The position numbers were made by a program. Of a stretch of 13,877 nt of DNA, positions 5,226-8,200 are shown one piece after another. Within the stretch, counting starts at the first letter, position 1; each line of letters opens with the position of its first letter. The stretch comes from a virus. Its lineage: Duplodnaviria; Heunggongvirae; Uroviricota; Caudoviricetes. Location: IMG/VR virus record IMGVR_UViG_2671181033_000010; one strand, given 5' to 3'.

Positions 5226-8200
5226 GGCGTTCGTCGAAAGGTGGCGCGTTATGGCCTGCCAGGTCGTTCTGTTGTTGCGCGTGACGGTGAGGGCCGGAAT
5301 GGTGCAATTGACGGCGAATGTATACGCATCAATACTACAGATGTGGTGCTGGTGGACGGGCAATAAAAAACCCTGAATAACTCCGCCGGGTGCTTCAATT
5401 GCACGGGGCGAAATCATTCAGGGTCAGCCGTAACGGGTCTCTGTACAGGTGGCTTCAATTGCCAGAAGATAAGCGCCCGTTACCGCCAGCTGTGATAAGC
5501 CGCTTTACAGTGAGCTCCAGTTGCTCAAAGAGGCGCGTTTTTATCACAACTTTGCCGCGATAACCCGCTGTACAGAGGGCTTCAATTGCCCAAAGAGGCG
5601 CATTCTTATCGCGGCATGGCGAAATATACGCCGTTATGCTTCGTCAGTCCACTGGCATCATGGCAAATAATTTTCATCTCCGTAACGTTTGCCATATGTG
5701 CGCCACACCTCATCCTGTGCGCTTAATCCCATCTATTTCAGTGTCCTGCTCGCTGCCTTGCTTAAGCCGCCGAATGTTTCCACTGGTTCCGGTGGCAGAC
5801 GGGATTTTCTGATACATCTCGCCCGACGTTCTGCCGCTTCTTCGCGCTCCTTGTCTGTTTCAGCGTTAAGCAGTACGTCACCCCATCGGGTAGCTGCTCG
5901 TCACCATAATCCGCGTTCTTCAAGTTTTTGCGCCACGCTGTCAGCTATCATCACCATCGTCTCCGGTTGTTTGCTGCTGGCTGTTCTGCTGCTTAATTTG
6001 CGCCAGTCTCCGTTTCAGTAGTTCACTGGCGACTGATTTATCTTCTTCCGTGACTTCACCGCAAGGCTGCCCGTTCAGGTCATACCTCACACCACCAGCG
6101 ATAACAGCATTCAGGTATCTGGTTGTGTGGATATACGATATTAACGCGCCGCGTAATACGCCGTGACCAATCGGCAATTCCCGTTCCTTAGCGTCCTTAA
6201 GCACATCACGGATCACGCCAGTTTTCAGGGGCTTTATATTCTCCACGTTGAAAAGCCCGGGCCAGTATTCAGCCAGGCGGTTAATCCGTCTGTGGTTTTT
6301 TCGCTGCCGCTTTGTCATGTGCTGCCACGGTATGCGCCGTGATGGTTTACGTGCAGTCTGGTCCTGTTGTGTGGTCTGCTGGTTCATGTTGTGCTCCTGT
6401 CATTCAGAACGGAATATCGTCAGAGAACGGGTCATCACCTCCCGCTGGTGGCTGATTTCCCTGCTGTCCGGTCTGTCGTTTTGCTCTTTCCAGTGCTTCG
6501 GTCGCCTTCCCCTGTTGCCCCCGCTTCCCGCCAGGGCGCGCCGAACGGGCACTGATTACGCTGTCAGCGATAACCTGCCAGCCCTGCCGTGTTTCCCCGT
6601 TCTGTCCGGTCCACTGGCTGATCTGCATGTTACCCGCCACGCTGATAAGGTCGCCTTTTTCATGTCTCGCCACCGCGTCGGCCTGCTTACCAAATGCCAG
6701 GACTGATAGCCATAACGTCGCCTGTCCGTCCTGTGCCTGACTGCATGGCAGTGATACCGCCATACGCGCCAGCGTCATCGCTGTTCCCTTGCTGGTCTGT
6801 TTTACCTGCGGGTCGTCCACCAGCCGCCCGTAAGCTGCAATCTGTGCTGTCATGGTCTGCGCTCCTTGTTCCGGTACTCCTGGATAATCCCCATTGTCAT
6901 ATCGAATAAATCACATGCCGCTTTTTCTGCATCTTCCGCTTTCAGGTCATACAGCGTCATGAAATGGTGAGCGATTGCCCGTGCGGATCTTTTGCTGTTT
7001 GCTGAATATTTCTCATAGATTTTTTCTGCCCGCTCTTCAATATCCCGCCGGAACTCTTCACGTTCAAACAGGTCACGGTGTATCAACATCAGCGAATCAT
7101 TCAGCCATGTCACATCGGCGTATACCGTTCGCTTCCAGACAATCAGGATCGGGATATGTTTTTCATCGCAGTGATGCAGATGTTCGTCAGGTATATAAAG
7201 CGTGGCTCTGCCTCGTACCGATACGAACCTCACAACAGATTCCGTTTCACTTGTTTTTTTGATCATGAATCGTCTCCTTCCAGGCATCGCATCATTCACA
7301 CGCTTTATATATAGGAAAAACGTGTTGCCTCAGTCGCCTCAGTTGCCTCAAACGCCTTAACATATTGATTTAATTAATAATCACAAAAAAATTGAGGCAA
7401 CATCATGTCGATTTGAGGCAACAATAGGGGGTATTTGAGGCAACATTACGTTGAACGCGTTCCGTTCAGACAAACAAAACCTGTCAGCCGTGTTGCCTCA
7501 AAATGGGCAGTTGTTGCCTCAAAATGGGTAATTGTTGCCTCAAAATGAGCAATTGTTGCCTCAGTAAAAACAGAAATAAAACATATAAATCAATCATATA
7601 TATATATTTATTACTGTTTGAGGCAACTGAGGCAACATTTTTTCATCTTATATACGCGTAGTTAATCGCTTCCCTCCTCATCGTGATTAGCGAACAACAT
7701 CCCGTAGGCCCATAATTGCGCTCCATTAAGGTTCTTAAGGCGTGGGGTCTTGATTTTCCATCCTCTCCCGCTCTCTGGTCGTTTCAGCATTCCAGCTTCG
7801 TGGAGTATTTTTGCAACGGTATCCTTGTTGAAGCCTTCCGCTACTTTCGATTTAAACGGCTCCGATAATACGTAAAACAACAATGGTTCATCGTAACGGC
7901 TTCCCGAATCCCTGTAGCCGTACAGCTCAGAAATCGGCAGGCTGGCTGGGTCATAATCAACGGGCGCAAAACGGCTCATGCCGTAGGCAGCAAGAAACGC
8001 CTCTGCCTGCTCAATGATCTGTTTGTGTTCCTTGTTGCCCGTGCCAAATTCTTTTACCCAGGCATTAAATACATACTGAATTGCATCGCGGCATTCCTGC
8101 ACGGACCAGCCAGTTACATGACCGGAAAGCACAAGCGCGGCCTCCAGTATGGAGAAACGTTCACCCACGCGGTGGACCTGCTCACCGTAATTGTCTGGAA

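Follow-up and report, generated by a model that had tools for sequence, protein, structure and literature searches.

A tandem hairpin array linked to a FinO/ProQ-domain gene in an Escherichia coli phage-satellite-like island, and its complementarity to a giant gene of Shiga-toxin phages

[quoted passage not shown] A gene of this family in an Escherichia coli phage-satellite-like island lies upstream of a tandem array of hairpins on the same strand, which raises the question of what the array does and whether it belongs with the protein. The window analyzed here, a stretch of 13,877 nucleotides, is part of this island. Satellite genes for a primase-helicase, SSB, Icd/C4 RNA immunity, PerC and Q were found in it. 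Two copies of the P1/P7 C4 RNA, as well as isrK, are located away from the array, and no terminase gene was seen among the satellite genes. A block of 21-bp iterons at 7392-7636 is the likely origin of the satellite. The sequence of the Q antiterminator ties the satellite to 933W-type phages. The features are listed below; R1 is a covariance model defined in a later section.

1680-2078, minus strand: satellite Q antiterminator, 86% identical to Q of an O104:H4 Stx2 prophage
4820-5366, plus strand: convergent gene, 128 aa in RefSeq, broken in the window by an assembly gap (N89 plus G37)
5365-5370, minus strand: U-tract TTTTTT after U4; U4 and U-tract form a predicted intrinsic terminator
5371-5424, minus strand: hairpin unit U4; R1 23.7 bits, E 7e-5 including the U-tract
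5427-5486, minus strand: hairpin unit U3, from repeat alignment and folding; R1 10.3 bits (weak)
5488-5551, minus strand: hairpin unit U2, from repeat alignment and folding; R1 17.2 bits
5553-5616, minus strand: hairpin unit U1, with an 11-bp outer stem (GCCGCGAUAA/UUAUCGCGGC) and apical GGGC-AAUUGAA-GCCC
5623-5651, minus strand: weak sigma-70-like site TGGACT-17-TATATT, 9/12 matches, not above chance
5700-5951, minus strand: perC-family pseudogene, 3' end lost, from nucleotide alignment with the intact 97-aa perC of locus L003
5941-6387, minus strand: FinO/ProQ-domain protein gene (proQ), 148 aa, basic N-terminal extension, Pfam PF04352

The FinO/ProQ-domain gene and the array beside it

The ProQ/FinO domain claimed in the initial annotation is borne out. 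The 148-aa protein matches Pfam PF04352 with 84.8 bits (E 5.2e-24; cut-off 27 bits) over residues 31-136, which cover model positions 4-108 of 109. PDB sequence matches were found to the solved FinO-domain structures of ProQ (5nb9, E 1.7e-13), FinO (1dvo, E 5.5e-13), RocC (7rgu, E 1.4e-11) and NMB1681 (3mw6, E 3.4e-7). In the alignment to ProQ, LRGAL, TRYL and VRYDL stand opposite LRSAL, WRYL and TRVDL, and equivalents of the conserved RNA-contact residues R58, Y70 and R80 of ProQ are visible. The scores against the NCBIfam models for FinO (62.9 bits, cut-off 136) and ProQ (62.8 bits, cut-off 127) were also obtained. The protein is a FinO/ProQ family member of a distinct subfamily, orthologous to neither FinO nor chromosomal ProQ. 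This subfamily is almost confined to E. coli islands, and its distant Salmonella relatives occur without the array; a pattern scan for ProQ-like proteins in one genome per species found nothing. Judging from the behavior of FinO-domain proteins, it may bind RNA.

A third perC gene, now a pseudogene, follows proQ, and its ATG (5951-5949) overlaps the proQ stop. The lesions in the window strain comprise CGA>TGA, GAG>TAG, a 1-nt deletion and a deletion of ~200 nt; a 46-aa PerC fragment is annotated by RefSeq at 5733-5873. The ~200-nt deletion also took away a fifth hairpin unit (U0) and a 17-bp hairpin that are present in related elements. The non-coding DNA downstream of proQ, put at ~520 bp in the initial annotation, thus amounts to ~365 bp, since about 220-250 bp are decayed perC. 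Because an intact perC intervenes between proQ and the array in related elements, the array would be the 3' UTR of perC or of the operon and not that of proQ.

The array consists of four direct repeats on the proQ strand with spacings of 60, 62 and 65 bp, 62-86% alike across a 29-nt core. An apical stem-loop GGC-AAUUGAA-GCC and a CTGTACAG-like element are found in all four. The previous description of three full repeats, a partial copy and a separate closing hairpin with a U-tract needs revision: four complete hairpins are present, the partial copy and the closing hairpin are both U4, and the terminator belongs to this last unit. The region folds at -148.6 kcal/mol (z = -6.6, matched by 0 of 100 shuffles) on the minus strand, compared with -133.4 on the plus strand, and a U-tract follows the hairpin on the minus strand only. 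U4 would be the intrinsic terminator of a minus-strand transcript. Its U-tract runs into the stop codon of the convergent gene, for which no match was found in Pfam, PHROG, NCBIfam or PADLOC. The convergent gene adjoins the array usually but not always, being absent in L011 and L178 where the array is still there, and PADLOC recognized no defence system adjoining the array. Rfam 15 holds no family for the array at the gathering threshold; at a permissive threshold, 5230-6000 gave one chance-level match (E = 1). A full-text literature search with the array core sequence returned 0 matches.

The weak sigma-70-like site would start an RNA at the base of U1, and it lies in strain-unique sequence that is absent from related loci. 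A promoter scan of one intact relative found none between perC and the array. An own promoter would be unneeded if the array were co-transcribed with the operon; the minus-strand replication module (primase ... SSB, proQ-like, perC) would then end in a tandem-hairpin structured RNA. In intact relatives U0 possesses its own U-run directly after perC, so that read-through would be needed.

Conservation of the structure and linkage to proQ

Covariation was analyzed in 12 related satellites with 100 consensus pairs. Double compensations occur in seven of these pairs, and the pairing cells contain 134 G.U versus 3 A.C. With the opposite strand as a control, the minus strand is lower both in alifold energy (-129.5 vs -96.8) and in mean MFE (-141.7 vs -123.4). 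The apical stem of U2 displays a double change from A-U to G-C among the satellites; U3 shows a compensated apical change from U-A to G-C along with G.U-type changes in its lower stem, and three G.U pairs of U4 alternate with Watson-Crick pairs. The array reads as a structured RNA because substitutions keep the stems paired, mostly via G.U pairs that are possible only on the proQ strand. The initial annotation had considered a structured RNA or 3' UTR on one side and a set of protein-binding DNA sites on the other. The former gains from the low folding energy and the compensated stems in homologous elements, with the UTR reassigned to perC or the operon, and the latter is disfavored by covarying stems and strand-specific G.U pairs. 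The earlier exclusion of CRISPR is upheld, as identical repeats, spacers and cas genes are all absent.

Intact relatives possess five or more units, compared with four in the window. Searches of 5,426 complete E. coli genomes with the array and with proQ gave identical counts, 116 genomes and 124 places for each. Loci found by the array alone have proQ-perC upstream in six of six cases. Across the carrier genomes the identity is 80-100% for the array and 60-100% for proQ; the array is kept beside ProQ variants only 56-66% identical to that of the window, whichever of the primase types is present. Linkage between the array and this proQ gene is strict, and the expectation that it would be found next to ProQ/FinO genes in other satellites held. 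About 2% of the complete E. coli genomes (116/5,426) carry the satellite family, and most carriers among the matches listed belong to Shiga-toxin-producing serotypes. Taken as a whole, the initial observation is confirmed for the FinO domain and the structured, linked array and corrected in unit count and non-coding extent, and its interpretation is partly supported.

The hairpin in Shiga-toxin phages and its wider family

U1 matches 182 phage records, nearly all Stx-converting, within an LPD38/LPD5 gene. This giant gene of ~2,780 aa belongs to short-tailed (933W/phi24B-type) Shiga-toxin phages, and the satellite units are antisense in orientation to the hairpin inside it. U1 of the window is identical to the antisense of phage allele 1b at 57 of 62 positions, and U1 variants of other satellites to the antisense of allele 1 at 60/62 and 62/62. 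Against the copy of 933W-type Stx phages, the window U1 is 89-92% complementary and U1 of other satellites up to 100%, with the complementary site at codons ~1833-1853. U1 alone is close, U0 and U2-U4 being 58-76% identical to the sampled phage alleles. The loop CAATTG is present in all sampled phage alleles; many satellite loops read AACUG, which would result in a central C.A mismatch in a loop-loop kiss with every one of them.

All matches listed in the 5,426 E. coli genomes are either a satellite array or the phage LPD38/LPD5 gene. The window strain has no phage copy of the hairpin (one place in its record). A blastn comparison of the satellite with 49 kb of the O104:H4 Stx2 prophage revealed only the Q gene and U1 in common. 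In the phage, terS is ~21 kb upstream of the site, which is buried deep in the gene, and a hypervariable stretch adjoins the hairpin. No homology was found between the array and the helper terS region. The phage antisense strand carries an 8/12 promoter-like site, identified by eye only. The 933W/phi24B-type Stx phages are the likely helpers, although the helper relationship is circumstantial. The link to the phage giant-gene hairpin, which was missed in the initial annotation, changes the likely function of the array.

The hairpin also belongs to a wider family. A pattern scan found about 60 distinct hairpins, mostly inside ORFs of 7-10 kb on the opposite strand. Across 22 diverse copies, pairing holds in 86.8% of cells, compared with 29-49% when the partner is slid, and both sides change in 15 of the 18 lower-stem pairs, a value reached by 0 of 500 shuffles. 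The covariance model R1 was derived from 22 unrelated metagenome sequences and contains no E. coli sequence. Its motif comprises a variable lower stem of ~15 bp, the core CUCUUUGGGCAAUUGGAGCCCUCUAGA with a 4-bp apical stem and a 7-nt loop, and a U-rich 3' flank. On the minus strand of the window, and not on the plus strand, it recognizes U1 (27.5 bits, E 5e-6), U4, U2 (local match) and, with a weak score, U3, and U0 of relatives scores up to 33.5 bits; R1 also matches generic terminators.

In six of seven diverse ORFs the MuF_C match ends at model position 100-103 of 103, exactly where the 5' arm of the hairpin starts. MuF-C equals PBECR, a predicted RNase domain (PMC5512222). Within giant polyvalent virion-protein genes, this widespread family sits where the MuF-C/PBECR coding segment ends on its 3' side. 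Unlike these ORF-embedded members at the MuF_C end, the satellite units are non-coding and tandem, and they are derived, free-standing copies similar to the intergenic copies in L097 and L157. In L157 the hairpin is co-oriented with, and 3' of, the gene pair of a restriction-modification (R-M) system, and in gut mobile elements a MobL relaxase gene is immediately preceded by a non-coding copy. Shared by distant phages and mobile elements, the covarying hairpin of the PBECR-domain boundary represents a conserved nucleic-acid motif that is new.

Possible functions of the array

We propose, as a tentative reading to which we give somewhat less than even weight, that the satellite produces an antisense hairpin RNA which, with its own FinO-like chaperone, pairs with the mRNA of the helper giant gene. 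The array RNA would be produced as a 3' UTR or a processed sRNA. Ligands derived from 3' UTRs are common for FinO-domain chaperones, ProQ working with 3'-UTR-derived and type I antitoxin sRNAs. The co-encoded FinO-domain protein would bind the terminator hairpin and U-tail, stabilize the RNA and promote pairing, as FinO does for FinP/traJ. The complementary hairpin of the phage late mRNA would be the pairing partner of the hairpins: the loops would make the first contact, and the duplex could grow to as much as 62 bp in the case of U1. Such pairing may lower or reshape the expression of the helper giant virion protein, to the gain of the satellite.

This proposal resembles known systems in part. 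Terminator hairpins are used by FinO/FinP, FopA/Inc and RocC/RocR alike, and FopA with Inc of pCol1B9, RocC with RocR of Legionella, and ProQ each have one or a few structured RNAs as dedicated ligands, recognized via the terminator hairpin (PMC9977716). With FinO and FinP-traJ the satellite shares a FinO-domain protein on a mobile element, a hairpin antisense RNA ending in a terminator and U-tail, and a target mRNA that forms complementary hairpins, so that a loop-to-loop start is possible. The predicted satellite RNA has the FinOP-type arrangement of stem-loops ending in an intrinsic terminator (four hairpins, U4 followed by U6). However, FinP is encoded in cis and matches the traJ 5' UTR of its own element with perfect complementarity, whereas the array is trans-encoded with four to five diverged units, and its complement lies in the Stx-phage replicon, inside a coding region, instead of in a cis-encoded, fully complementary 5' UTR. 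To our knowledge, none of the FopA, RocC and ProQ ligands is a repeat array and none targets a phage structural or effector gene. Among satellites and phages, the P1/P7 C4 and P4 CI immunity RNAs are likewise antisense RNAs, but their sequence and structure are unrelated to the array. CRISPR arrays share the tandem layout and the sequence identity to phage; in the satellite, by contrast, the repeats themselves are phage-like. A small RNA of the PLE satellite in Vibrio cholerae is also reported to regulate genes of its helper ICP1, but it is another RNA in another organism, and the abstract describes no satellite chaperone, repeat array or embedded target hairpin (bioRxiv 10.1101/2022.04.08.487710).

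The array might instead be a passive RNA element, that is, a strong composite terminator, 3'-end stabilizer and convergent-gene insulator that behaves like REP elements at the 3' ends of mRNAs, with no trans role or specific tie to the FinO-like protein, and its resemblance to the phage gene would then stem from a terminator-hairpin module inherited from a common ancestor. U4, placed where two convergent genes meet, is a textbook terminator, other family members such as that in L157 are co-oriented 3' hairpins of ordinary genes, and the affinity of R1 for generic terminators points the same way. We consider this unlikely, since termination needs only one hairpin, yet four to five units that share a conserved ~30-nt core are kept at 80-100% identity in non-coding DNA with proQ drifting to 60%. 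The equal counts of array and proQ in the 116 genomes are hard to reconcile with a passive role, and U1 alleles 97-100% identical to the phage allele imply recent exchange or selection for matching. Conservation stronger than that of the neighboring gene also tells against a dead fragment of a polyvalent-protein gene, in which the repeats would be decayed coding sequence. The plus-strand units do translate into S[RC]D[NK]PLYRGLQLPKEAHSYRG-like peptides resembling the phage peptide, with loop variation at third codon positions of that frame. However, the spacings of 60, 62 and 65 nt put the units into different frames with stops between them, and the stem changes are compensatory as RNA and non-synonymous as peptide; this origin is effectively refuted and extremely unlikely.

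A DNA-level cis site in common with the helper, such as a pac-like signal, a single-strand priming or initiation signal serving the adjacent primase/SSB module, or a recombination anchor, is another candidate; its multiplication in the satellite would make it accessible to several helper alleles. The hairpin and Q are all the satellite sequence common with 49 kb of the Stx prophage, and no satellite terminase was seen; the array sits in the replication module beside SSB and primase, the gut-element copy occupies the usual place of oriT inverted repeats upstream of a relaxase gene, and a hypervariable stretch abuts the phage hairpin. Covarying stems and conserved loops nevertheless denote an intramolecular fold rather than duplex-DNA recognition, the excess of G.U over A.C and the U-tract fit RNA best, the phage site is far from terS and inside a gene, and the likely satellite origin is the iteron block. 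We regard a cis site as quite unlikely. As an RNA, the array might also serve as a decoy or antitoxin: it would bind and neutralize a phage protein, for example the PBECR RNase domain whose coding segment directly precedes the phage hairpin, or be cleaved by it, in the manner of ToxI/ToxN. Type III toxin-antitoxin systems similarly have tandem RNA repeats on mobile elements, the hairpin is tied family-wide to a predicted RNase domain, and a protein might recognize the conserved core of apical and internal loop. Here, however, the RNase link runs via the phage PBECR only, with neither an adjoining toxin or endoribonuclease gene nor a PADLOC match. The units are long, diverged hairpins instead of near-identical short repeats, and the satellite copies are antisense to the RNase mRNA segment, complementing the mRNA hairpin and hence not mimicking it. 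Such a role is very unlikely.

Several further candidates were considered and rejected. The Pas sRNAs of EPEC/EHEC prophages came into question in view of their Stx-phage origin, but they lie among other genes (holin/lysozyme, Q, structural operon), and no polyvalent-gene link is given for them. A helper-embedded PICI att site, suggested by the 62-nt identity to a prophage late gene, does not suit an array that is internal, tandem and hairpin-structured. A frameshift site formed by the A-run and hairpin on the phage sense strand lacks a conserved slippery heptamer, and the A-run is broken in allele L010. Mimicry of a tRNA anticodon arm by the 7-nt loop was dismissed because the apparent Gln anticodon is simply the antisense of a Gln codon, and because an equivalent of U33 is missing. 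The phage peptide varies at the supposed ADP-ribosyltransferase 'YRG' motif (LLHRG or PQYSG). A REP/MITE-like dispersed repeat is contradicted by the two contexts, satellite array or phage LPD38/LPD5 gene, among the matches listed, and a copied pac/cos site by the terS comparison above.

Joining the antisense proposal to the wider family leads to a broader idea, which we hold to be doubtful: a previously undescribed hairpin superimposed on coding sequence would constitute, with its antisense copies, a new layer of control, and the Stx satellites would have turned this motif into a weapon or sensor. The coding hairpin, present in many phages as well as in conjugative or mobilizable elements where the PBECR (MuF-C) RNase domain of injected polyvalent proteins ends, would control effector genes, and the satellite array would be a tandem multi-allelic antisense library with a dedicated FinO-family chaperone. 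The helper could not easily mutate the target segment, because it is constrained as both protein and structure.

Helper interference by phage satellites is known mostly through proteins. If the pairing is real, the array would represent an RNA-level interaction between satellite and helper with its own chaperone. It could also affect the development of Stx phages, the satellite possessing a Stx-type Q antiterminator as well. The hairpin at the PBECR boundary is of interest independently of the satellite, and its function is directly testable.

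Genetic organization of the island

The window corresponds, at 99.9% identity, to an island in the chromosome of E. coli strain 2013C-4974. An integrase gene and replication genes encoding a DUF927 primase-helicase and an SSB were found together with the following features.

Features of the island (window positions)
1680-2078, minus strand: Q antiterminator gene
2356-3594, minus strand: YeeE/YedE-type transporter gene, cargo
4166-4429, minus strand: perC-family gene
4433-4735, minus strand: perC-family gene
5371-5424, minus strand: hairpin unit U4
5427-5486, minus strand: hairpin unit U3
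5488-5551, minus strand: hairpin unit U2
5553-5616, minus strand: hairpin unit U1
5700-5951, minus strand: perC-family gene
5941-6387, minus strand: 148-aa FinO/ProQ-domain ORF (Pfam PF04352, E 5.2e-24)
7392-7636: tandem 21-bp iterons (TGTTGCCTCAAAATGGGCAAT plus an inverted set), between the primase-helicase gene and the next gene
10924-11011, 11390-11477 and 11526-11605, minus strand: two C4 antisense RNAs (RF01695, 71.7 and 81.3 bits) and one isrK (RF01394, 51.8 bits), from Rfam, in the Icd-like/ash region
12693-13469, minus strand: GIY-YIG/T5orf172 protein gene, cargo, with a weak PADLOC candidate-system match (PDC-S57, E 1.4e-8)

Genes for capsid or terminase were not seen in the island, whose gene content suggests a PICI/P4-like phage satellite. 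The iteron block is probably its replication origin. With its C4 and isrK RNAs, the Icd-like/ash region forms an RNA immunity module of the P1/P4 type, and antisense RNA control is thus already in use elsewhere in the island. An assembly artefact at 5099-5224 (89 N then 37 G, with a 33-nt duplicated flank) splits a convergent plus-strand gene of 128 aa, which is a continuous 387-nt gene in the complete genome.

The ProQ/FinO identity proposed for the 148-aa protein in the initial annotation was borne out by Pfam, and its sequence also matches the solved structures of ProQ (5nb9, 1.7e-13), FinO (1dvo, 5.5e-13), RocC and NMB1681. The protein scores below the NCBIfam thresholds for both FinO and ProQ proper, possesses a basic N-terminal extension comparable to that of FinO and represents a separate subfamily nearly restricted to E. 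coli islands. The 520 bp or so downstream, described as non-coding, are so only in part, since a perC gene occupies 5951 down to about 5700, with its ATG overlapping the proQ stop codon. In relatives this perC is intact (97 aa), lying between proQ and the array and overlapping proQ. The gene of the window strain is dead, with two nonsense changes (CGA to TGA and GAG to TAG), a 1-nt deletion and a deletion of about 200 nt; the latter also took out a fifth hairpin unit, U0, and a 17-bp hairpin, both carried by relatives.

Structure and linkage of the hairpin array

A repeat search on the same strand 3' of the 148-aa ORF revealed a 29-nt core in four copies at 60/62/65-nt spacing, every copy bordered by its own inverted arms. 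RNA folding resolved these into four consecutive long hairpins, U1 to U4, and not three full repeats plus a partial copy as first described; the partial copy and the closing hairpin are both U4. As first described, a U-tract follows this closing hairpin: U4 with its U6 run forms the terminator, and the tract overlaps the stop codon of the convergent 128-aa gene. The array folds at -148.6 kcal/mol on the minus strand (z = -6.6 versus shuffles) and at -133.4 kcal/mol on the plus strand.

Related islands were gathered from complete genomes, assemblies and metagenomes, and the folding and covariation check suggested earlier supports the structure across 12 distinct arrays, where stem changes keep pairing. 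The RNAalifold consensus contains 100 pairs, 7 of which vary on both sides yet remain paired, and about 20 further pairs show one-sided changes with pairing kept via G.U; the pair cells comprise 1,054 Watson-Crick, 134 G.U, 3 A.C and 9 others. Because the structure was predicted on the proQ strand (the window minus strand), a reverse-complement folding control was added: consensus energy and mean MFE were -129.5 and -141.7 on the proQ strand versus -96.8 and -123.4 on the opposite strand, and the U-tract is present on the proQ strand only. No conserved promoter was found between perC and the array, and the simplest reading of the sequence is that the array would be co-transcribed with proQ-perC. 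U0 may terminate ahead of the rest of the array.

The expectation that the array accompanies proQ-like genes in other satellites held: a U2-U4-specific query and a query within the proQ-like gene, run against 5,426 complete E. coli genomes, each matched 116 genomes at 124 places, and in the matches listed the two queries hit the same genomes, at positions about 0.9 kb from each other. Every one of the six loci found via the array alone has proQ-perC upstream. Conversely, seven of eight E. coli loci found via divergent ProQ proteins have hairpin model matches immediately 3' of perC, the sole exception (L176) encoding a 52% ProQ variant, and two Salmonella loci found in this way gave no model match. 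Salmonella islands L013/L014 (4793-5371) keep primase-SSB-ProQ-PerC with the array missing, and their downstream spacer holds other, CTGCGCA-type repeats. Identity is 80-100% for the array but 60-100% for the proQ gene, so the array is the better conserved of the two; it is retained whichever primase type is present and whether or not the convergent 128-aa gene accompanies it.

A hairpin family embedded in MuF_C genes

When viral, genome and metagenome collections were scanned for the hairpin pattern, about 60 distinct true hairpins emerged. Their sequence backgrounds differ widely, Edwardsiella prophages and AT-rich gut elements among them, and the majority are contained in opposite-strand ORFs of 7-10 kb, where they encode ...W.(Q/R)SRGLQLPKEGT... 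In six of seven diverse ORFs the end of the MuF_C model (positions 100-103 of 103) is the exact start of the 5' arm; MuF-C corresponds to PBECR, a predicted RNase domain found in polyvalent proteins (PMC5512222). Among 22 diverse copies the lower stem covaries completely, 15 of its 18 pairs changing on both sides; base pairing holds in 86.8% of cells versus 29-49% after sliding the 3' partner by 1-3 columns, and none of 500 shuffles reached the observed values. On the strand antisense to the ORF, a U-rich run follows nearly every inspected copy, G.U pairs are twofold commoner (108 versus 55) and the fold is more stable (47 units versus 17). R1, a covariance model built solely from these non-E. 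coli sequences, matches U1 (27.5 bits, E 5e-6), U4 (23.7), U2 (17.2) and, less convincingly, U3 (10.3, weak); every one of these matches is on the window minus strand. U0 of related islands reaches up to 33.5 bits. No Rfam family matches the hairpin, and its core sequence is absent from the searchable full-text literature.

U1 is 89-92% identical to a 62-nt stretch in the giant gene of short-tailed Stx-converting phages, which encodes an LPD38/LPD5 'polyvalent' protein of about 2,780 aa. Phage records containing a U1-like stretch number 182, almost all of them from Stx phages, and several hundred E. coli genomes contain one as well; a 49-kb Stx prophage segment has one R1 match, in the giant gene. 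The phage copy lies directly after the MuF_C domain, is in frame, encoding SRDNLLHRGLQLPKGEHSYRGS, and has perfect 11-bp arms. Its sense strand corresponds to the window plus strand, so a minus-strand RNA of the satellite would be antisense to the phage mRNA. Directly 5' of the hairpin, a hypervariable stretch of about 150 nt (62-80% identity versus about 95% elsewhere; L002 5350-5500 equivalents, alignment columns 1350-1500) lies at the C-terminal part of the PBECR domain and could be a recombination breakpoint or an arms-race signature.

Proposed antisense pairing with the helper and its alternatives

We tentatively propose that the array is a structured RNA derived from the 3' UTR, whose hairpins would pair with the complementary hairpin in the helper giant-gene mRNA, while the co-encoded FinO-domain protein would bind the terminator hairpin and tail, stabilise the RNA and promote the duplex. 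FinO/FinP-traJ logic (review PMC9977716), a precedent for chaperone-antisense pairing, would thus be transferred to satellite-helper conflict. Taken as a whole, this chain is possible, somewhat short of an even chance. Satellite U1 has two allelic forms paralleling two phage alleles: one agrees with the antisense of allele 1 at 60/62 to 62/62 positions, and the window form with that of allele 1b at 57/62. The other units are 58-76% identical to any sampled phage allele with the core of about 30 nt preserved, many satellite loops are AACUG, mismatched to all sampled phage loops, and the window carrier strain has no phage copy of the hairpin. The satellite apical loop AAYUGRA varies at only two positions in the window and loci L003-L178; in the phage frame both fall at the third position of a codon (CTY, CAR), and CAG is absent from every sampled phage allele despite the CAR variation in satellites.

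A passive composite terminator and 3' stabiliser, to be set against the allelic parallel of U1, would fit the terminator at U4 and is unlikely. A DNA-level cis site for pac, priming or recombination is rather improbable beside the strand preference of the fold; free-standing copies bear on it. In a family of human-gut contigs, a gene for a 313-aa MuF_C protein holds a coding copy, and a second, non-coding copy, 88% identical and 374 nt off (L097 4678-4758, minus strand; same site in L074, L084, L095, L098, L126, L135, L153 and L167), lies in the spacer ahead of a MobL relaxase gene, opposed to both flanking genes, with conserved TTGACA/TATAAT-like hexamers upstream and a U-run downstream. This non-coding copy may represent either a minimal antisense sRNA gene or a repeat of the oriT type. 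L157 has two copies as co-oriented 3' hairpins by a restriction-modification pair.

A decoy or antitoxin RNA directed at the PBECR RNase, suggested by the position of the phage copy and set beside its complementarity to the satellite units, has a small chance of being correct. Decayed coding repeats, which the in-frame phage copy would recall, are contradicted by frame analysis and barely credible. CRISPR, doubted from the outset, is excluded, its defining features being absent, and the REP/MITE and att-site readings were rejected on the same grounds.

The satellite Q is 86% identical in protein sequence to Q of the O104:H4 Stx2 prophage (L008 1279-1713), which also carries the hairpin, and blastn finds just two stretches, Q and U1, common to the island and 49 kb of that prophage. 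The island might cross-talk with Stx-phage late transcription, hence toxin expression.

The observation of the array with its FinO-like gene is real. Mobile-element FinO-family chaperones with cognate antisense RNAs are already known, and on present sequence grounds the array is assigned to that kind. Under the antisense proposal, phage escape would be costly because protein and structural constraints both act on the target core. Three features are without precedent: the array is tandem and multi-unit, its putative target lies in trans in a helper phage gene, and its hairpins belong to a widespread, previously undescribed family of coding-embedded hairpins.
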